Assembly (NCBI GenBank): GCA_001793095.1
Contig: MGHG01000009.1
Span: 90,391-154,390 of the forward strand
DNA from: Candidatus Woesebacteria bacterium RIFCSPLOWO2_01_FULL_39_23
GTDB taxonomy: Bacteria; Patescibacteriota; Microgenomatia; UBA8517
Reading direction: 5' to 3'
DNA: 64,000 nucleotides
The position numbers and the translations under genes are program-made. Of this stretch, positions 3,044 to 34,910 are shown in pieces. A model generated the notes under the pieces. It was not told the origin of the DNA and made no database searches. It saw nothing but the letters and a program-made list of their open reading frames with translations. The number at the start of each line of letters is the position of its first letter. Within the stretch, counting starts at the first letter, position 1.

Positions 3044-3075
3044 AAACTACTCATGTTTTTAGGCATGAGTAGTTT
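3044..3075 (+). terminator. Perfect 12-bp stem hairpin (AAACTACTCATG/CATGAGTAGTTT) downstream of the GT cluster; possible terminator
   Basis: Inverted repeat seen directly in the sequence. It is followed by TATATG rather than a clean U-run. Confidence 0.25.
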
Positions 3076-3498
3076 ATATGTTGACAAAAATCGCCTCTTG
3101 ATTCGGGTTTACTTCGGGATAATAATAGAGTGGAAGAGCGAGAGAGCAGGAGAGTTTAAGTTTTTAAATACCGATACTCTTACACTCTTTTACTCTTCTA
3201 CTCTAATGTCATGATTGAGAAAATCTCGACGCCAGTGTCCGTATCGATGACTTTTGACAGCACTAGTCGACGTGTCCAGCCTAAAATTGTGATTTGGCAT
3301 GGCCGCCTCTACCCTATCGTTAAGACTGGACTTCACCACACTTACAGGCAGGGGCGAACTCTTTTCCATGTTTTCTCCGTTGCCAGCAAGACGTTATTTT
3401 TTAGATTGGTTCTAGATACCGAAACCCTGTATTGGAGGTTGGAAGAGATTTCCGATGGAATGACAAATTAGCGCTTAAACTTATTATAATAAAAAAGT

Positions 3499-4134
3499 AT
3501 GGAATCTGATGAAAACATGTCGGCATACCCGTTTCGAGTTCAGCCGGGAGAAGAAATAGCGAGAGGATGGTCTGAATCGCGGGTGTACAGACACGAACCC
3601 GGTTGGGTTTTGAAAATTACTTATAGGAAATCCAGAAATAGTAAAGAGCAACTTGCAGAGAATAAAGCTGACTATGAATTTTTTAAAAGCAGACTTGGCG
3701 AATATGTACCTGAAACGCAATTTTTAATCGGACAGGATGAAAAAGGAAGAAGGGTTAATATTGTCAGACAAAAAGAAATTGCCGGCAGAACTTTATTATC
3801 TTTTACAGATGAGGAAATTAAGGAAAATATCCAACTGCAACGAAATTTAGTTGTGTTGTTTGAGAGAATAATTAAAATGTGGGAAGAGGATGGAAGAATT
3901 CCCGACCTCGTTGGACCCAGAAAGGGTGGTAGGTCATTTTTGACAAAATTTACTCCAGGTACCCATCCGGAACATACACCCAATATTATAGTTGAAGAAG
4001 GAACTAGTAAGCCTTATTTGGTTGACACCTCTGCTTCAGTAAGGTTTCAATCCAAGGATTCCCCTTTCCCCTACTTAAAGCTTAGCGAAATGATTGTAGC
4101 GAATATGCGAAGGTTTGTTAGTAAATATACTTAG
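3499..4134 (+). CDS. Hypothetical protein with weak protein-kinase-like features
   Basis: 211 aa. It has a glycine-loop-like GWSESRVY...VLKI segment, a catalytic-loop-like HTPNIIVEEG and a DFG-like LVDTS. The assignment is tentative. Confidence 0.3.
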   Translation: MESDENMSAYPFRVQPGEEIARGWSESRVYRHEPGWVLKITYRKSRNSKEQLAENKADYEFFKSRLGEYVPETQFLIGQDEKGRRVNIVRQKEIAGRTLLSFTDEEIKENIQLQRNLVVLFERIIKMWEEDGRIPDLVGPRKGGRSFLTKFTPGTHPEHTPNIIVEEGTSKPYLVDTSASVRFQSKDSPFPYLKLSEMIVANMRRFVSKYT

Positions 4135-4946: not shown

Positions 4947-6305
4947 ATGGAAAATATTCTTAATTTTAATCCCAGGCCATCTACAATCCTACATATTGAT
5001 CTTAATTCCTGCTTTGCGACTATCGAACAGCAGGCAAACCCACATCTCCGGGGGAAACCCGTTGCTGTTGCGGCTTACACGAGCTCTAATGGCTGTATCC
5101 TTGCTCCCTCTATTGAGGCTAAGAAATATGGTGTAAAAACCGGAATGAGAGTAAAGGACGGGATGCTTTTGTGTCCTAATTTAATAATTTTACCTTCCGA
5201 TCCCTGGAAATACCGCAACGTCCATCTTAGCCTAAGGCAATTGCTTTCAAACTACACACCTGACGTTATGCCTAAGAGCATAGATGAGTTTGTATTAGAC
5301 TTTCAGAGAGTTGGAGGGATCAGAGGATCGGAAAACTCGGAGTATTCAGATGGTCAGATAGCCAGAGAGTCAGAATTCCGGAAATCTGGTGATCCGATGC
5401 TCGGGTCCCCTGAGTTTTCTGAGGGCTCCGGTTCTCCGTTATGTCGAGTTGCTCAAGAGATCAAGCAGCGTATCAAGCAAGAGGTTGGAGAGTGGCTGAC
5501 TGTTTCGATTGGAATTGCCCCGAATAGGTTTTTGGCAAAACTTGCGTCGGGTTTGCATAAACCGGACGGCCTCGATGAAATTAATAAAGGTAATTTCTTG
5601 GGAGTTTATTCTCAACTTGAACTTACTGATTTGCCTTATATTAAAATGCGTAACGCCATTAGGCTTAATCGTATGGAAATTTTTAGTGTTGTCGATTTTT
5701 ATCATGCACCGCTTTGGAAATTGAAAGCAGCTTTTGAGTCAGTTAATGGTTATTATTGGTATTTGAGGTTAAGGGGGCAGGAAATAGATGATGTCGCTTT
5801 CGGAAGACGAAGCTACGGCAATTCGTATGCGCTCCCCCGCCCTCTAGCCACACCGGAAGACTTGTCGCCTATTTTGACTAAGTTGGTAACTAAGACAGGT
5901 GCCCGTCTTAGGCATGCGGGGTATGCTGCCCGCGGAGTGCACGTTGCCGTAGGCTATAGGGACGGTAGTTTTTGGCATAAGGGTGTGACTTTCAGTAAAA
6001 ACTTATTTGAGTCACGAGAGATTTATAAGTGTTCACTTAGAATTCTTTGTCAGTCTCCGTATCGTAGGCCGGTCAGAGATTTGGCTATTTCGGTCTTCGA
6101 TTTGCGAAGAAAGGAGAGCCTTCAGCTTGAACTTTTTGAGGATGCTGTTGCTAAGGAGAATTTAGCTAAAGCGGTTGATCGGGTGAACGAGCGTTGGGGT
6201 GATTTTGTGGTTACACCGGCGCGCATGGTTAGTGCTTCGAGCGAAGTTCCAGACAGAATCGCGTTCGGCGGGATTAAGGAGCTAGAAGAATTTGCACTAA
6301 GCTAA
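4947..6305 (+). CDS. dinB: DNA polymerase IV (Y-family translesion polymerase) with a ~45 aa lineage-specific insertion
   Basis: Matches ILHIDLNSCFATIEQ..GKPVAV, SIDEFVLDF and SIGIAPNRFLAKLAS. 452 aa against the usual ~360; the extra segment is GIRGSENSEYSDGQIARESEFRKSGDPMLGSPEFSEGSGSP. Confidence 0.8.
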   Translation: MENILNFNPRPSTILHIDLNSCFATIEQQANPHLRGKPVAVAAYTSSNGCILAPSIEAKKYGVKTGMRVKDGMLLCPNLIILPSDPWKYRNVHLSLRQLLSNYTPDVMPKSIDEFVLDFQRVGGIRGSENSEYSDGQIARESEFRKSGDPMLGSPEFSEGSGSPLCRVAQEIKQRIKQEVGEWLTVSIGIAPNRFLAKLASGLHKPDGLDEINKGNFLGVYSQLELTDLPYIKMRNAIRLNRMEIFSVVDFYHAPLWKLKAAFESVNGYYWYLRLRGQEIDDVAFGRRSYGNSYALPRPLATPEDLSPILTKLVTKTGARLRHAGYAARGVHVAVGYRDGSFWHKGVTFSKNLFESREIYKCSLRILCQSPYRRPVRDLAISVFDLRRKESLQLELFEDAVAKENLAKAVDRVNERWGDFVVTPARMVSASSEVPDRIAFGGIKELEEFALS

Positions 6306-6930: not shown

Positions 6931-7194
6931 CTAGTATGAAGCATTAAGTTCTTTTTCAATAGCACTGATTTCTCTGTCAATTTCACTCAAATCGGTGTCA
7001 TTAATATCTTTTTCTATCGCTTCTACATCATCGGACTGTGATTGCGTTTGGATTTGACGGATTTCAGTAGAGGCTTTTTCAGGAGTAACAGGAGCTCTCT
7101 TTTGAGAAAAGAAAGAAAAAATAACTATACCCATTAATATTAATACGATAGATAAAGTTAAGAGAAAATTATTATTTTTATTTTTTAATATCAT
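6931..7194 (-). CDS. Small membrane protein (N-terminal TM, acidic C-terminus)
   Basis: 87 aa ORF tightly packed between neighbouring minus-strand genes. Confidence 0.35.
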   Translation of the reverse strand: MILKNKNNNFLLTLSIVLILMGIVIFSFFSQKRAPVTPEKASTEIRQIQTQSQSDDVEAIEKDINDTDLSEIDREISAIEKELNASY

Positions 7195-8225: not shown

Positions 8226-8753
8226 TTATAAATCGAATTCGAGCGGTGTCGAATCAATTTTGCTCATGAAAAATTCGACTTTTCCACCCCAAGTTGAACT
8301 TGGAGGAGCATAGCGGCGTGCAATGCTTTTAATTGTTACTGCTCCCTTATCCTTATATTTAAGTCTTAAGGTTTTGGTAACATGTTCAATTGAATCCTCC
8401 CACGAACTAAAACGGTATTCTCCGTTCGCCCAACCATATGCATTAAATGAATTTTTGGGTATTCTTTTACCGAACGTAGATTCTACACCACTTATTGCCG
8501 GAATCAGCCTCCAGTCAATATTATAAACGTCAGCCCAATAAACAAAGTACTTTGCATAAGGAGTAAGGGGTGAATTATATTTTTTAAAGAATATTTTCAG
8601 TTTAAGTGTTCTATAATCCATCTCATAGTTACCAATATTGGTTATAGTATAGGAATCAGAATAATTAGGTACGCTAACAGCTGCCCTTGCGTTGGGTGTA
8701 AGTGTTGCATATAGAATAAACATCACAATTGAAAATACTTTTACATTTCTCAT
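8226..8753 (-). CDS. Membrane-anchored lysozyme-like / lytic-transglycosylase-like protein
   Basis: It has an N-terminal TM and the motif ISGVESTFG...YGW. The ORF-track start at 8798 is probably an N-terminal over-extension; the Met at 8753 is preferred. Confidence 0.4.
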   Translation of the reverse strand: MRNVKVFSIVMFILYATLTPNARAAVSVPNYSDSYTITNIGNYEMDYRTLKLKIFFKKYNSPLTPYAKYFVYWADVYNIDWRLIPAISGVESTFGKRIPKNSFNAYGWANGEYRFSSWEDSIEHVTKTLRLKYKDKGAVTIKSIARRYAPPSSTWGGKVEFFMSKIDSTPLEFDL

Positions 8754-11089: not shown

Positions 11090-11236
11090 GCGGCGTCGGA
11101 ATGTGCTTCACTTTCGGTATACCGCAAAGCTTTACACCTATCGTTTCGCAATTCCTCCTTTCAATTCCTCGCCATGCTCGGAATTGATATTAGAACAGAT
11201 ATAATTTTATCAGATTCAGGTTCAAATTGCATTTAA

Positions 11237-18185: not shown

Positions 18186-18299
18186 TCGTCAAAACAAATT
18201 ACGCTTTCAGCAAATCGCAAAGCTTTTTGCTTTACGCTACATTGTTTTCCTCTCAAAATTGCATGCAATTTTGTTAATAACTATTATTTTACTAAATTA

Positions 18300-23004: not shown

Positions 23005-23253
23005 TCAATGTAAACTATTAATCAAATTTTGCTTTTTAAGTCTACTCCAACCTTTGATCTCTTTTTCTCTTCGAGCGGCTTTATACCTATCTGTTAGCTT
23101 TTCCCAATAAACTAATTTGACCGGTATCTTACTTAATTGTAAGCAAGACTTGATTCTTAAGTTGTGCTCTTTGATACGTTTCTTGAGATTCCAACTAATT
23201 CCCGTATAGTAGGAATTATCTTTGCACTTAAGTATATAGACAAACCAAGACAT
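23005..23253 (-). CDS. Stand-alone GIY-YIG nuclease family protein
   Basis: FVYILKC.DNSYYTGIS.NLKKRIKEHN is the GIY-YIG signature. 82 aa; starts 18 bp from the tRNA-Gly 5' end. Confidence 0.6.
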   Translation of the reverse strand: MSWFVYILKCKDNSYYTGISWNLKKRIKEHNLRIKSCLQLSKIPVKLVYWEKLTDRYKAARREKEIKGWSRLKKQNLINSLH

Positions 23254-23820: not shown

Positions 23821-24112
23821 ATTTTGTCGTGTTTTGAATTATACTTTTTACAAAATTAAATGGCAAATAATATAAAGGAGAGTGAACTTAAACTAACAAT
23901 CCTGACTACCTCGGCTTGTCGAAATGGACTTCGCTTTCTGTAAAACGCTAACGCTTTTTACTTAACGCTTCGTCATTTCTCCACTCAAAATCTCAAAGAG
24001 ATTTTGTTTATACATTATACAAGATTGCATTGCAATCTTGAGAGGAAGAGCCAACTAGTAAGCGAGGTTTCAATATAATTGAAACAAAGCGGTAAAGTTG
24101 ATCTCTGATGAG

Positions 24113-24803: not shown

Positions 24804-24885
24804 GCGGGGAAGAGGACTTGAACCTCCACGGATTACTCCACAGCCTCCTCAAGACTGCGCGTCTGCCAATTTCGCCATCCCCGCG
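24804..24885 (-). tRNA. tRNA-Leu (anticodon GAG), type II
   Basis: Cloverleaf built by hand: GCGGGGA acceptor, TTGAGGA anticodon loop, long variable arm. Confidence 0.8.
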
Positions 24886-25095
24886 CGTCGTAACACGACA
24901 CGCTAAATTTCATTCTGCTTTTGCAGAACTCCATCCGCTTATCTGTTGCTCCCTTTCAATACTTTGACTTCACTCACGATTGTCTTTATATTCTAACAAA
25001 ATTTGTTTATACAAATTTTGAGAGGAGAAGCAAACGTAAGCTAAAGTTTTGAGCAAAAGCTCAAAACAAAAGCTGCAAGTTTAGATTCGACTTGG

Positions 25096-30855: not shown

Positions 30856-33402
30856 ATGGAGAAATTGTGGAATTTAAACGGTGACAGGGTTTTAGAATTA
30901 CTTCAAACAAGTGATGATGGTTTAAGCACCGAGGAAGCTATAAAACGCTTCGAAAAATATGGTGACAATATAATCGGCGAGAAAAAACCTCCAAGCGCAA
31001 TAAAAATTTTTTTCAACCAATTTAAAAGTTGGCTCATATTAATTTTGTTATCTGCTTCAATCCTCTCCTTCTACTTAGGTGAACATATCGATGCCCTTGT
31101 AATTATATTTTTAGTTTTACTAAGCGTCACCTTCGGTTTTTTACAGGAATACAAGGCCAATAAGACAATTTTTGATCTTAAAAAATTCATTACTAATAAA
31201 TGCAGAGTATTAAGAGACCATAGGTGGGTATTAATTGACAGCAGAACCGTTGTTCCGGGAGATATAGTTGAGGTTCGTATCGGGGATAAAATTCCGGCTG
31301 ATATACGGATTCTTTCCGCTGATTCATTGCTGATAGATGAATCTATCTTAACGGGAGAGTCTTTACCTGTTAATAAAACTGATAGTACATTGACTGAGGT
31401 TTCCGAGAATCCATCGAAGCTTAAAAACATAGTTTTTATGGGTTCGACCGTATCTTCCGGAAAAGCTACAGGTGTGGTTATCGCCACAGGGAATAAAACT
31501 TTTTTTGGCAAAACTGCTCAAATATTAGAGAAGAGCGAACCTGAAACAGATTTTCAACAACAAATAAAAGCCTTCAGCGCCTTTCTTTTTAAAGTCATAA
31601 TTATTATGACCGTATTCATATTTATAAGTAACTCTTTACTTAAAAAGGAAATACTCGAATCTTTTCTTTTTGCACTTGCACTTGCAGTCGGGATAACTCC
31701 TGAAATGCTGCCTGCAATAATTACTGTGACGCTTTCACAGGGGGCCATTAAAATGGCTAAGAGAAAAGTTATAGTTAAAAGATTGATTTCTGTTGAAGAC
31801 TTCGGGAATATTGACACTCTTTGCATGGACAAAACGGGCACACTTACTGAAGGAAAATTCTCGCTTGATAATTATCAGGATTTGGAAGGAAAGAAGTCAG
31901 AAGAAATAATACTTTTTGGACTATTGTGTACCCGCGGTTTAGGAGAGAGATTACAGGGTGTAATTTCGGATCCTATTGATCGTGCAATTTGGCAAAGCGT
32001 TCAATCACATAGGCTTAAAGCTAAGCTGGCAACATATAAGTTTATTGATGGAAATGAGTTTGATTACGAAAGAAGAAGGATGAGCGTTCTGGTAAAATCC
32101 GGCGCCGAAAGTTCGTTAATTTCGAAAGGTGCGCCAGAGTCTATATTATCAATATCGACTCACGCAAACATTAACGGTAAAAACGTGAGACTTACTCCGG
32201 AGATTAATAAAAGAATCGAACAAGACCTAAATAAGATGGAAAAAGATGGTTTTAGAGTAATTGCTATTTCTAAAAAAGATCTGGCATCACGTACTTCGAG
32301 TAAAAACGATGAAAAAGATATGGTATTTATGGGATATTTACTTTTTAGTGATCCTGTTAAAATTTCTGTCAAAGAAGCAATCGAGCGTTTTACTAATTTG
32401 GGAGTTTCTTTAAAAGTACTTAGTGGTGACAGCCTTATAATAACGAAAAATATTGCATTTGAAGCTGGATTAAACTTTAAAAATAATGAAATGATAAGCG
32501 GTGATGAACTTGAAGGTATGAGCCAAGAGAAGTTTTCAGAAACAGTAAGAAGGGTAAAAATTTTTGCGCGTGTAACTCCGGAGCATAAATATAAAATAAT
32601 CAAAAGTTTGAATTATGAAGGTCATATTGTCGGATTTTTAGGGGACGGGGTCAACGACGCTCCCGCGTTGAGGGAGGCAGATGTTGGTATTTCTGTAGAT
32701 TCAGGAGTCGATATTGCCAAAGATGCATCAGACATTATTCTACTTAAAAAAGACTTAAAAGTACTTTCTGAAGGTATCGAGGCCGGTAGAAAAACCTTCG
32801 GTAATATTATGAAGTACATTCTGAATACGATATCTGCGAATTACGGTAACATGTTTACAGTTGCCCTTTCATCTTTGTTTCTGAAATTTATACCCCTCCT
32901 GCCTTCACAAATACTTTTAAATAATTTTATCAGTGATGTTCCCCTATTCGCTGTAGCCACGGATAATGTAGATCCCGATTTTGTCAAAAAACCCAAGCGA
33001 TGGAACATTTCTTTTATTAAGAATTTTATGGTTTCGTACGGATTTGTAAGCTCCGCTTTTGACTTGGTTTTAATTCTTCCGATGATATTTTTCTTTAACG
33101 TAAGTGTTGACGTATTCAGGACGGCCTGGTTCGTTGAGTCGAGTCTATCCGAAATGTTAGTAACTTTTACCATCAGAACAAAACTCCCCTTCTATAAAAG
33201 TAGGCCAAGTAAGTGGTTAATTGGGTTGAGCATGGGTTCTGCAGCAATAGTTCTAGCTCTATCATTTTTAGAGGTAAATATTTTTAAATTTGTGCGGTTG
33301 CCGATGTATGTTTGGGGGCTAATTATCGTTGACCTTGTTTCATATTTTATTGTTACGGAAATCTTCAAGAAGAAATTCTTTACAAAACTCGAAGAGAAGT
33401 AA
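30856..33402 (+). CDS. P-type cation-transporting ATPase (type II/IIIB, Mg2+/Ca2+-type)
   Basis: CMDKTGTLTEG phosphorylation motif, TGES-like TGESLPV and GDGVNDAPAL hinge. 848 aa with N-terminal cation-ATPase-N and 10 TM helices. Confidence 0.85.
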   Translation: MEKLWNLNGDRVLELLQTSDDGLSTEEAIKRFEKYGDNIIGEKKPPSAIKIFFNQFKSWLILILLSASILSFYLGEHIDALVIIFLVLLSVTFGFLQEYKANKTIFDLKKFITNKCRVLRDHRWVLIDSRTVVPGDIVEVRIGDKIPADIRILSADSLLIDESILTGESLPVNKTDSTLTEVSENPSKLKNIVFMGSTVSSGKATGVVIATGNKTFFGKTAQILEKSEPETDFQQQIKAFSAFLFKVIIIMTVFIFISNSLLKKEILESFLFALALAVGITPEMLPAIITVTLSQGAIKMAKRKVIVKRLISVEDFGNIDTLCMDKTGTLTEGKFSLDNYQDLEGKKSEEIILFGLLCTRGLGERLQGVISDPIDRAIWQSVQSHRLKAKLATYKFIDGNEFDYERRRMSVLVKSGAESSLISKGAPESILSISTHANINGKNVRLTPEINKRIEQDLNKMEKDGFRVIAISKKDLASRTSSKNDEKDMVFMGYLLFSDPVKISVKEAIERFTNLGVSLKVLSGDSLIITKNIAFEAGLNFKNNEMISGDELEGMSQEKFSETVRRVKIFARVTPEHKYKIIKSLNYEGHIVGFLGDGVNDAPALREADVGISVDSGVDIAKDASDIILLKKDLKVLSEGIEAGRKTFGNIMKYILNTISANYGNMFTVALSSLFLKFIPLLPSQILLNNFISDVPLFAVATDNVDPDFVKKPKRWNISFIKNFMVSYGFVSSAFDLVLILPMIFFFNVSVDVFRTAWFVESSLSEMLVTFTIRTKLPFYKSRPSKWLIGLSMGSAAIVLALSFLEVNIFKFVRLPMYVWGLIIVDLVSYFIVTEIFKKKFFTKLEEK

Positions 33403-33446
33403 TTTGTTTCGACACGCTCCCGCGAATGTTGAGCTTGTCGAAACAG

Positions 33447-33517
33447 AGCGGGTAGGGGGAATCGAACCCCCATAAAGAGATTGGAAATCTCTTGTTCTAC
33501 CATTGAACCATACCCGC
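33447..33517 (-). tRNA. tRNA-Gly (anticodon TCC)
   Basis: Cloverleaf built by hand: GCGGGTA acceptor, AGAGA/TCTCT anticodon stem, TTTCCAA loop, U73. Confidence 0.75.
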
Positions 33518-33538
33518 ATATGTTACATATTTTCAATG

Positions 33539-33670
33539 GCCAAGCTCCGCTTACAGCGCGTAGCGATGCCAAGCTTTGCTTACAGCGCGTAGCGATGCCA
33601 AGCTTTGCTTACAGCGCGTAGCGATGCCAAGCTTTGCTTACAGCGCGTAGCGATGCCAAGCTCCGCTTAC
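33539..33670. repeat. Tandem minisatellite, 29-bp unit x ~4.5 (GCCAAGCTYYGCTTACAGCGCGTAGCGAT)
   Basis: Directly adjacent repeats with no spacers. It sits between tRNA-Gly(TCC) and a duplicated 20-nt copy of the tRNA 5' end (33668-33687). Confidence 0.8.
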
Positions 33671-33816
33671 CATTGAACCATACCCGCGCGTCGTAACACG
33701 ACGCACTAATCGTATCACAATGCCTTTGCGTAGGATACTAACGCTAGTCGGTTACTCCTTTCAATCCTTCTGCTTTGCTCAGGATTGGTTTCTAACAATC
33801 AAATAATATGTTTTTG

Positions 33817-33888
33817 TCGGGGACCCGGGAATTGGACCCGGTGCCTCTCGCTCCCAAAGCGAGCATTCTACCGTCGAACTCGTCCCCG
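33817..33888 (-). tRNA. tRNA-Pro (anticodon TGG)
   Basis: Cloverleaf built by hand: C1-G72 acceptor, TTTGGGA anticodon loop. Confidence 0.8.
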
Positions 33889-33894
33889 GATCGG

Positions 33895-33980
33895 TGTCGG
33901 GAGGGAGACTCGAACTCCCACGAGACTAATGTCTCATCAGCTCTTAAGGCTGAGGCGTCTGCCAATTCCGCCATCCCGAC
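33895..33980 (-). tRNA. tRNA-Leu (anticodon TAA), type II
   Basis: Cloverleaf built by hand: GTCGGGA acceptor, CTTAAGA anticodon loop, hairpin variable arm. Confidence 0.8.
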
Positions 33981-34040
33981 TCGTCGAAAGGAACAAAGAT
34001 AGTATATTTTACTATTGAGACGTGTAAAGAGGCAAATATA

Positions 34041-34910
34041 TTATTTTTTTGTGCCGACGATTATAATTACGTCATAAGAAGAGCTGGAAGCGACTTTAGT
34101 GTCAGATTTGGCCACGGAGTATGTAGACTTAAGTAGTTCTTCGATTTTATCGTATACTTTTGATGGCGTATTTTCTTTGAGCTTAACCTCGGTATCTTCA
34201 TAGTCATAATTGTCAGCATTAGCAGTATCAGTCTTTTTAAATTTAGCTGAAGCTAAAAGATCCTTTACCTTTCCAGCTTCTCCTGGAATACCTGAGCCGT
34301 TAAGTATTTGAATGCTGTAGTCAGAAAATTTAACTTCACCCGATTCGGTGGCTCCCGGAGTTGTAGTAGGGGTAATGGTAATAGTAGGCGTACTTGTGGG
34401 TTCTGTATCTCCTTCGTCCCCCGTCTTTTTAGTCATATTCTTTTGGTAGTAAAGGAAACCGCCAGTGATAATTGCCAAGAGTGATAAAACCAAGAGTATT
34501 ATTAAAAATATTTTGAAAAAACTTTTTCCTTCTTTTTTCTCCGGAGTTTTATTTGTTTCGTCGTAATTTTCTATCCATTTATTCACACTGTCTTTTGAAA
34601 AGTCAGTCGACATGATATCTTTTTCAGGAACACTTCCGGTATCAGCTTGGGCTATTGTTGGAACCTTTGATTTTGCAGATGCATCCTCTGCCGGTTTATC
34701 TGAATCAATGAGACCAAAAGATGTCACCTTTGGAGCGTCCTCTGCAGCAGGCTCGGCTTTTAAATCAGGAACGAAACTCTTTTTTGGGGGGTCTGCCGGA
34801 TCCGGATCGTCATTTTTGGCTAGTTCCGCCGATTTCAGAGTATCCCCTGTTTTTACGGTAATGACTTCCTCCTCCTCGTTGTCGCTTGTCTTTTTACTAT
34901 CGGCAGCCAT
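34041..34910 (-). CDS. Hypothetical membrane protein with acidic low-complexity N-terminal region
   Basis: 289 aa with a single central TM helix and Pro/Thr-rich linkers. Confidence 0.35.
   Translation of the reverse strand: MAADSKKTSDNEEEEVITVKTGDTLKSAELAKNDDPDPADPPKKSFVPDLKAEPAAEDAPKVTSFGLIDSDKPAEDASAKSKVPTIAQADTGSVPEKDIMSTDFSKDSVNKWIENYDETNKTPEKKEGKSFFKIFLIILLVLSLLAIITGGFLYYQKNMTKKTGDEGDTEPTSTPTITITPTTTPGATESGEVKFSDYSIQILNGSGIPGEAGKVKDLLASAKFKKTDTANADNYDYEDTEVKLKENTPSKVYDKIEELLKSTYSVAKSDTKVASSSSYDVIIIVGTKK

Follow-up and report, generated by a model that had tools for sequence, protein, structure and literature searches.

Why should an intact tRNA-Gly(UCC) gene be preceded by a second, exact copy of its own first 20 nucleotides, with a tandem array lying between the two? 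This question is raised by a locus in a 64-kb stretch of the genome of Candidatus Woesebacteria bacterium RIFCSPLOWO2_01_FULL_39_23 (contig MGHG01000009.1), the whole of which is called the window here. The window has about 37% G+C, is densely coding and contains 13 scattered tRNA genes. Comparison of the locus with related sequences suggests that it belongs to a family of small palindromic elements, similar to the repetitive extragenic palindromic (REP) elements, which is present in Woesebacteria, Microgenomates and other Patescibacteria and which would have been made at the level of DNA. We give this reading a somewhat better than even chance. Only the expansion of the array is specific to the window lineage, and the hairpin structure which carries it is common with other lineages.

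The duplicated end of the gene is called X, and its distal copy is called the decoy. The 20-mer TACCATTGAACCATACCCGC is present in exactly two copies, at 33498–33517 and 33668–33687, and two matches were not reached in any of 100 shuffles. In the 5' to 3' direction of the minus strand, the locus consists of a leader of ~110 nt ending in the hairpin GCGTCGTGTTACGACGC, the decoy GCGGGTATGGTTCAATGGTA, AGCGGAGCTTGG, three repeats of CATCGCTACGCGCTGTA plus AGCAAAGCTTGG, a last CATCGCTACGCGCTGTA plus AGCGGAGCTTGG, the arm CCATTGAA, the linker AATATGTAACATAT and the tRNA. The decoy joins the first core right after GGTA. The array contains five cores of the form (TA)AGC-NNN-GCTTGG with four copies of the 17-nt filler CATCGCTACGCGCTGTA between them, each unit being composed of a 12-nt core and this filler. 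It is situated at the tip of the hairpin, between the first core and the reverse-complement arm. All five cores are in one orientation with a period of 29 nt, the loops of the outer two being GGA and those of the inner three AAA, and the three inner full units are identical. Collapse of the array leaves a module of 54 nt made of X, a small palindrome, the reverse complement of X and the linker. Two assemblies made independently (MGFV01000010.1 of NCBI and a JGI contig) give the same locus to the base. An earlier reading of the letters alone, referred to as the sequence-only reading, had described the intact tRNA, the array and the exact copy of the tRNA 5' end. All three descriptions are borne out, the first by ARAGORN and Rfam (Table 1), the second by Tandem Repeats Finder (TRF; 29 bp × 4.6, 96% matches) with four full copies having at most two mismatches against 0 expected in shuffles, and the third by the shuffling result given above.

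Relatives were found by a 20-mer scan with one genome per species (at least 119 loci, denoted by L numbers) and by a scan of metagenome contigs for the junction GGTTCAATGGTAAGCNNAGCTTGGC, the pattern of which fixed positions 9–20 of X and left only positions 1–8 free. In at least six other lineages of Microgenomates and Patescibacteria (L018/L123, L124, L125, L127, L128 and L104/L126), the module is present 5' of an intact tRNA-Gly(UCC) without the array. Its order in these relatives is X (the first 20 nt of the tRNA), the core TA/AGC-NNN-GCTTG(G), the reverse complement of X, a short linker and the intact tRNA. The spacing from X to X is 52–87 nt in the module-only relatives, compared with 170 nt in the window, and every version folds as one long hairpin (−16 to −36 kcal/mol). 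L125 has a single extra copy of the core in the hairpin tip and no array. The Leu-Pro-Gly tRNA cluster is conserved in relatives. L128 is like the window in its unusual tRNA-Pro, in its short CCATTGAA(C) arm and in its linker ATGTTAATAAT, which resembles AATATGTAACATAT by eye (with no statistic attached). Because of these three likenesses, the module is probably older than the window species. The module is absent from L140, L081 and L082, and L082, without it, has a tRNA-Pro and promoter identical to those of L124, which has it.

The sequence-only reading had proposed that a 150-bp minisatellite was recently inserted and made the duplication. A single minisatellite-bearing element landing at tRNA position 20 would have produced a 20-bp target-site duplication, or gene conversion would have repaired the tRNA. 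However, the duplication and the hairpin without the minisatellite in six other lineages (L018, L124, L127, L128 and L104 among them) largely refute this proposal, both in its recent date and in the role given to the minisatellite. The array lies inside an older hairpin and varies in copy number, and its unit has a homolog in another element of L129. The insert also holds the reverse complement of its target, which simple target-site duplication does not give. What agrees with the proposal is the exact 20-bp direct repeat around the extra DNA, and the state of locus L140, found via PyrG synteny, where a long leader of the same family (...CGACGC/GCGGGTAT) is joined directly to the real tRNA-Gly(TCC) with no module. 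By comparison with L140, additional DNA lies at tRNA position 20/21 in the window, with the 20-nt direct repeat on either side, and the description of the leader as parted from its tRNA by such DNA is a fair one. The difference may be a gain in the window line or, through deletion between the repeats, a loss in L140. Far from being arbitrary DNA, the insert holds the reverse complement of the duplicated 20-mer and a core which recurs at other tRNA ends. A single recent insertion is considered very improbable.

The array probably reached 4.6 copies by ordinary slippage at a tandem duplication. A third assembly (ENA; L001) has 2.5 units instead of 4.5 and is 58 bp (two units) shorter, which may be either real variation or collapse during short-read assembly. 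The elements of L129 and of its ortholog L134 differ by exactly one 29-nt unit of filler plus core. The unit of L129 is identical to that of the window at 22 of 29 positions (76%; 12 of 17 in the filler, counted by hand on the alignment), and because of this resemblance the unit belongs to the element family and is not private to the window locus. The sequence-only reading had suggested a search for the unit elsewhere in the genome; no further copy is present in the rest of the 64-kb window. Two ideas about the unit were dropped. A second hairpin in the filler was not retained, as the 29-mer folds no better than shuffles (z = −0.17), nor was derivation of the 29-mer from the leader, local alignments to the paralogous tRNA leaders being no better than shuffles (p 0.02–0.7). 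An 11-mer, AAGCGGAGCTT, which corresponds to a core with a GGA loop, is present inside the coding sequence of the neighbouring ATPase gene at 33048–33058, 400 nt from the tRNA (chance expectation ~0.03). This may be a coincidence.

The core is also found away from the tRNA-Gly(UCC) 5' end. The pattern GTAAGCNNAGCTTGGC, a 16-mer with 14 fixed bases for which ~0.006 chance matches were expected in the DNA searched at that stage, and looser versions of it match sites unrelated to that context (Table 1). All clear cases have the order X, core, reverse complement of X, linker and X/Y (a slash marks a junction). On the strand which reads TAAGC-NNN-GCTTG(G) for the core, X ends in RTA and the second X continues as the undisturbed gene. 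The junction at tRNA sites is RTA/G near a helix boundary (positions 9/10, 20/21 or 65/66). At its other end, X extends 0–2 nt past the tRNA terminus: to G1 in both tRNA-Gly genes, to −2 in tRNA-Pro and to 74–75 in the 3'-side elements. Because X reaches this far, an intact tRNA is regenerated beside a decoy of its end. Exact X repeats of at least 9 nt after GTA occur at 0.2% of control sites. The inner stem UAAGC/GCUUG is unchanging across contexts. The outer arms differ, with changes on both sides in 7 of 13 pairs, and still pair in 89% of cells, a result that no shuffle out of 500 equalled. Because the plan is the same in either orientation of the tRNA and at promoter-like DNA, a process acting on DNA explains it best, and not a function of the tRNA transcript. 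Derivation of the core from the local anticodon arm was tried and rejected, since the tRNA-Gly(GCC) and tRNA-Pro sites have the same core.

The recurrence of the core at these sites also bears on the possibility that the decoy is a decayed tandem duplicate of the tRNA-Gly gene, of which the middle was deleted and the hairpin is leftover pairing of the acceptor stem. The anticodon arms at the tRNA-Pro, tRNA-Gly(GCC) and non-tRNA sites differ from the core which they share. The 3' arm in L125 does end in TACC(T)CGCTC, like the 3' end of the tRNA, and L018 keeps ATACCC; however, the 3' arm is also complementary to tRNA positions 8–18, which a tRNA remnant would not be. Decayed copies lying upstream of live tRNAs in L104, L027 and L140 lend the idea some plausibility, and we regard it as improbable.

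It is well known that integration commonly takes place at tRNA genes and usually leaves a direct repeat of part of the tRNA as its scar. The decoy and the proximal X might then be the left and right attachment sites of an integrase-borne island or prophage which was inserted in the tRNA gene and was later almost wholly deleted. At this locus, however, it is the 5' part of the gene which is duplicated and not the 3' part, and the interior holds an inverted copy of the repeat. The repeats are only 32–150 nt apart, and the DNA between them contains neither integrase nor cargo; an overlapping open reading frame (ORF) of 126 aa has no Pfam family match. Outside the tRNA itself the module has no match in phage and plasmid collections, and viral contigs gave 0 matches to the module junction or the 29-mer. 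Such an origin appears scarcely credible.

Under the DNA-level origin which we favour, either a tiny hairpin element was inserted or replication switched template twice at a palindrome, running forward, back and forward again. Near-palindromic linkers (TCATATGA, AAATTT, AATCTGATT, AACATGTT and GAAACAGGTTTC) would fit a second tight turn in such a synthesis path. Selection would have retained only the events whose duplication just sufficed to restore the tRNA. If short duplications are much commoner than long ones, only insertions near the gene end would be rescued and the survivors would be just long enough. Such a filter is the simplest reading of where X ends, and the processed tRNA or a tRNA-like DNA structure may also be involved. 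The array would have been enlarged by replication slippage. Transcription would start at the upstream leader promoter or arrive as read-through from the Leu-Pro genes, the decoy and antisense arm would pair locally in the precursor, and RNase P would cut the proximal copy at G1. We consider that the hairpin is probably tolerated and at most mildly useful, and not essential.

The leader which precedes the decoy has paralogs before tRNA-Leu(GAG), tRNA-Lys(CUU) and tRNA-Arg(UCU). A leader of this family, of ~100 nt and abutting the tRNA 5' end, is present before four tRNA genes in the window (the one in Table 1 and those at 24885–24995, 11090–11200 and 18186–18290, all on the minus strand), and another lies before tRNA-Gly(UCC) at 7000–7109 of L140. 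Its features are an extended −10-like TGTTAGAAT, a stem, TTGAAAGGAG and ~75 nt more. The paralogous leader has no Rfam match and its consensus fold is weak (only −2.4 kcal/mol by RNAalifold of four leaders). The hairpin GCGTCGTGTTACGACGC and the box ATTGAAAGGAG had been described as present upstream of both tRNA-Leu(GAG) and tRNA-Lys, which is partly correct. The hairpin is common to tRNA-Leu(GAG), with one extra base in the 5' arm (GCGTGTCGT...), and is not in tRNA-Lys; the box is exact upstream of tRNA-Lys (11155–11165) and tRNA-Gly and has a one-base insertion at Leu(GAG). The 11-mer by itself is within chance (4 matches against 2.2 expected), and it is located at equal distance from the tRNA 5' end in the leaders that align. 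A related element (an AT-rich hairpin, TTGAGAGGAAG and ~75 nt) is found at tRNA 3' ends in antisense, at 24003–24111 (plus strand) by tRNA-Val in the window and at ~8340–8450 (minus strand) in L134. Because of this element, the leader family appears tied to tRNA gene ends in both orientations, like the core hairpin.

Between the leader and tRNA-Gly there is no terminator-like site, and no T-run follows the hairpin. Read-through into tRNA-Gly from the Leu-Pro genes is possible. An internal promoter (TTGAAA-18-TATGGT) in the linker was rejected as the tRNA promoter because its start would fall inside the tRNA. The tRNA-Gly is probably made from a long structured precursor with a 5' leader of at least ~210 nt. 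When the full precursor is folded in silico, its two identical 5' strands are rivals for the 3' strand of the acceptor stem, the minimum-energy fold using the distal copy and the centroid the proximal one. Local pairing of the decoy with the antisense arm during transcription would be expected to favour the normal cloverleaf and an RNase P cut at the proximal G1.

This competition raises the possibility that the hairpin is a selected cis-acting RNA. The decoy and antisense arm could form a switch for folding or processing of the pre-tRNA, or the hairpin could protect or mark the precursor or yield a stable leader RNA. Without such a partner, the antisense arm could pair with the real end of the tRNA, and the module persists although 20-nt direct repeats should favour its deletion. 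An arrangement at tRNA 3' ends mirrors that at the 5' ends; however, the same plan is found in antisense to the tRNA and also at promoter DNA which need not be transcribed. The sequence-only reading had taken a diverged duplicate in relatives as the mark of an old feature. The arrangement is indeed common to relatives, but in six lineages the decoy shows no difference from the tRNA 5' end, whereas the partner arm and linker have diverged and the arm still pairs. Only in L104 does the decoy have two changes, and there the tRNA copy beside it has decayed, its place being taken by a second tRNA-Gly(UCC) of a different kind. The invariance of the 5' arm cuts both ways, as it leaves no two-sided compensatory changes among the tRNA-Gly(TCC) modules. 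The absence of the module from L140 and from close relatives such as L082, as opposed to L124, is likewise against a selected RNA, as are the lack of a terminator-like site and of any Rfam family match. At permissive thresholds, Rfam returned only the tRNAs and two chance plastid motifs in 33350–34050. We regard a selected cis-acting RNA as rather unlikely and keep it alive because the decoy is invariant also at positions 1–8, which were free in the search pattern.

In locus L104 (110–330, the same as L126), the tRNA-Gly(UCC) with the module is of the window's type and has decayed, and next comes a functional tRNA-Gly(UCC) of another type (GCGGGATTAGTT...). The latter is the type present at the syntenic site in L129, L131, L134 and L137. 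One tRNA-Gly has apparently been replaced by another.

Several points weigh against a REP-like family made at the DNA level. An unvarying decoy beside a diverged arm and linker is not expected from pure neutrality and suggests selection on the decoy or its repeated conversion by the tRNA copy; part of the conservation, at positions 9–20, is forced by the search patterns. The copy number is low where it can be measured, with one locus in the 64-kb window; L129, L134 and L140 have two or three per ~20 kb. The family rests on about a dozen sites from tRNA-rich DNA, which is a biased sample below whole-genome scale, and the number of independent cases is smaller if several sites, such as the 3'-side elements of L109, L129 and L134, come from one event, as they may. 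In the part of the window ORFs that was scanned, neither a transposase nor another enzyme is tied to the element. We know of no mechanism which yields a conserved core flanked by direct and inverted triplication of the target, and no description of the X-core-inverted-X arrangement was found in the literature. A wider proposal is put forward tentatively, as possible rather than probable. Bacteria of the Candidate Phyla Radiation may have a tiny palindromic insertion element with a core of 12–13 nt, which lands at RTA/G near tRNA ends and some promoters, rebuilds the gene by direct and inverted triplication of the target and can seed minisatellites. The decoy termini which it leaves in pre-tRNA leaders and trailers could affect tRNA folding or processing.

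Table 1. Features of the tRNA-Gly(UCC) locus in window coordinates, and sites with the core at other genes and in other genomes
Feature	Positions	Strand	Basis or arrangement
tRNA-Gly(UCC), intact	33446/7–33517	minus	ARAGORN; Rfam tRNA 73.8 bits; normal cloverleaf in centroid fold
Proximal X, first 20 nt of tRNA-Gly(UCC)	33498–33517	minus	exact direct repeat
AT-rich linker AATATGTAACATAT, reverse-complement arm to tRNA	33518–33531	minus	sequence and alignment
Hairpin 3' arm CCATTGAA, reverse complement of tRNA/decoy positions 11–18 (TTCAATGG)	33532–33539	minus	pair counts
29-nt tandem array, 4.6 units	33539–33670	minus	TRF
Distal (decoy) X GCGGGTATGGTTCAATGGTA, tRNA positions 1–20; hairpin 5' arm	33668–33687	minus	exact repeat
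Leader upstream of decoy, ~110 nt	33688–33800	minus	comparison with paralogous leaders
Hairpin GCGTCGTGTTACGACGC	33688–33704	minus	leader end
Box ATTGAAAGGAG	33755–33765	minus	tRNA-Gly leader
Promoter-like TTGAAA-18-TAGTAT	33764–33735	minus	overlaps box ATTGAAAGGAG
tRNA-Pro(UGG) and tRNA-Leu(UAA), upstream, same strand as tRNA-Gly	33816–33980	minus	ARAGORN
Promoter-like site for tRNA-Leu(UAA)	34028–34001	minus	promoter scan
Inverted repeat, 15-nt arms, ATPase stop codon to tRNA 3' end	33405–33445		repeat search
Mg-type P-type ATPase gene	30856–33402	plus	lineage comparison
L129, tRNA-Gly(GCC) 5' end, X = 20 nt			GCGGGAGTAGCTCAGTGGTA/AGCAAAGCTTGG/CCACTTTACTACTCTCC/.../GCGGGAGTAGCTCAGTGGTA/GAGC
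L092, tRNA-Pro 5' end, X = 11 nt			AACGGGGCGTA/AGCGGAGCTTG/CGCCC/.../AACGGGGCGTA/GTAT
L140, decayed tRNA-Arg copy upstream of tRNA-Arg(TCG)			core after GGATA
L109, tRNA-Gly(TCC) 3' end		opposite to tRNA	GAGCGGGTA/AGCGGAGCTTGG/CCTTCTC.../GAGCGGGTA/GGGG
L134, tRNA-Gly(TCC) 3' end		opposite to tRNA	GGAGCGGGATA/AGCAAAGCTTG/TCCC/.../GGAGCGGGATA/CGGG
L129, tRNA-Gly(TCC) 3' end		opposite to tRNA	similar element
L140, tRNA-Gly(GCC) 3' end		opposite to tRNA	similar element
L018 and L134, promoter-like intergenic regions			weaker cases

On its 3' side, the tRNA-Gly gene is adjoined by an inverted repeat and the gene of the P-type ATPase (Table 1). The inverted repeat may serve as a two-way terminator; no T-run terminator was called there. 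The sequence GAGCTTGTC within it could conceivably be what is left of the 3'-side core element which L129 and L134 have at this place. The ATPase gene is absent from the interval between pyrG and tRNA-Gly in all syntenic relatives (L129–L140). Its best homologs have 66% identity and are not syntenic, and the lower-ranked ones (~50–52%) include some named as archaeal. The gene was probably acquired in the window lineage alone, by insertion directly at the 3' end of tRNA-Gly. Since the ATPase homologs are at most 66% identical and non-syntenic, relatives of the locus were sought by the synteny of PyrG.

Small GIY-YIG ORFs (82–96 aa) adjoin tRNA genes at 23005–23253 (minus strand) in the window, at 5679–5927 (minus strand) in L109 and at 3046–3306, 3436–3720 and 11249–11539 in L129. 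Homologous copies of 82 aa with a common 3' tail (AGTTTACATTGAGGA..CGAAAT/GCGG) are located directly upstream of tRNA-Gly(GCC) in the window and of tRNA-Gly(UCC) in L109. The ORF and its tail look like a mobile cassette aimed at the 5' flanks of tRNA-Gly genes. Other rearranged tRNA loci were also encountered. In L075 (~5390–5650; Woesebacteria RBG_16_42_24), tRNA-Pro is apparently split in the anticodon loop by ~150 nt which hold another complete tRNA-Pro(UGG). L027 (4490–4643) has a pseudo-tRNA-Arg upstream of the live tRNA, with the palindromic insertion TCCGCC-AGCT-GGCGGA. In L051 (3430–3643), from a Pseudomonadales genome, REP-like hairpins lie between tRNA-Thr and a 20-nt copy of its 5' end. 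Cumulative GC skew in the window climbs to ~52 kb and then drops, and this peak near 50–52 kb may mark a replication terminus within the window.

Taken as a REP-like family, the element would show by what route the tRNA genes of very small, streamlined genomes gain long structured leaders and spare copies of their ends. As far as we are aware, few repeat families have been described in this bacterial group, to which another would be added. If the process generating it, with a conserved core and triplication of the target, is new, it would bear on the spread of small palindromes without a recognisable transposase. The locus also calls for caution in annotation, where the partial tRNA copies should not be taken as scars of island integration and either 5' copy can be mis-called as the gene start. 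The 29-bp array could act as a strain marker in metagenomes.

Comparison with known systems sets several of them apart from the locus. In contrast to an attenuator or a riboswitch-like leader, it has alternative pairings in silico only, with no terminator-like site and no Rfam match, and the module is absent from L140, L081 and L082. A tRNA intron does not describe it either, since the tRNA is complete and uninterrupted and no intron family was found at E values up to 10 in 33350–34050. Unlike a CRISPR array, it repeats whole 29-nt units head to tail with no unique spacers between them. A minisatellite or variable-number tandem repeat is a better description of the array, with head-to-tail 29-bp units which are 96% alike and differ in copy number in another assembly (where collapse is possible). 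However, the unit here is not anonymous DNA but a hairpin core and a filler, the latter conserved in a relative.

The scars of integrase-borne islands share with the locus a partial direct repeat of the tRNA and an intact tRNA regenerated on one side. They duplicate the 3' part of the tRNA around kilobases of DNA with an integrase, whereas here the 5' 20 nt (in relatives also 9–11 nt of the 3' end) are duplicated around 30–150 nt which include an inverted copy. The palindromic elements of Rickettsia and miniature inverted-repeat transposable elements (MITEs) are similar in being short hairpin DNA tolerated in or next to essential genes. They are, however, 100–150 bp long or have terminal inverted repeats of their own with a short target duplication of fixed length. 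Here the arms differ from site to site and match the local target, and the duplication varies within 9–21 nt (direct repeats of 9, 11, 20 and 20 nt).

Snap-back or template-switch synthesis, quasi-palindrome mutagenesis and fold-back repair give templated insertions with private junctions. Our locus is like these in its direct and inverted copies of the flank and in two turns which both look palindromic. It differs in that one turn is always the same core of 12–13 nt across genomes and sites.

REP elements and bacterial interspersed mosaic elements (BIMEs) are small imperfect palindromes with a conserved stem and a short 5' tag, intergenic at gene ends, occurring in tandem copies and able to sit inside local palindromes (PMC8266576, PMC3733652, PMC2817692). 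At one end, REPs have a tag of four conserved nucleotides, GTAG or CGTC (PMC8266576, PMC3733652). In our element the stem is preceded by GGTA, CGTA, GATA or TGTA and the A of the core comes next, which makes the tag RTAA. The alternating orientation of BIMEs is likewise not seen, all cores of the window array pointing the same way, and REPs have hundreds of copies per genome, whereas the copy number of our element looks low in the stretches covered here. REPs are mobilised by the RAYT (TnpAREP) transposases, and no RAYT gene is linked to the element among the part of the window ORFs that was scanned. A Y1_Tnp gene of the IS200/RAYT type is present at 3989–4666 of L131, a close relative, ~6 kb from pyrG at a locus without the core. 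Nor are REPs known to combine a direct copy of their target with an inverted one, as is seen in the window element. Nevertheless, like REPs, which are imperfect palindromes of 20–50 nt with the capacity to form a stem-loop, our element folds as one hairpin in all its versions, and with its conserved stem, short 5' tag, tandem arrays and position at gene ends it has REPs and BIMEs as its closest known kind.

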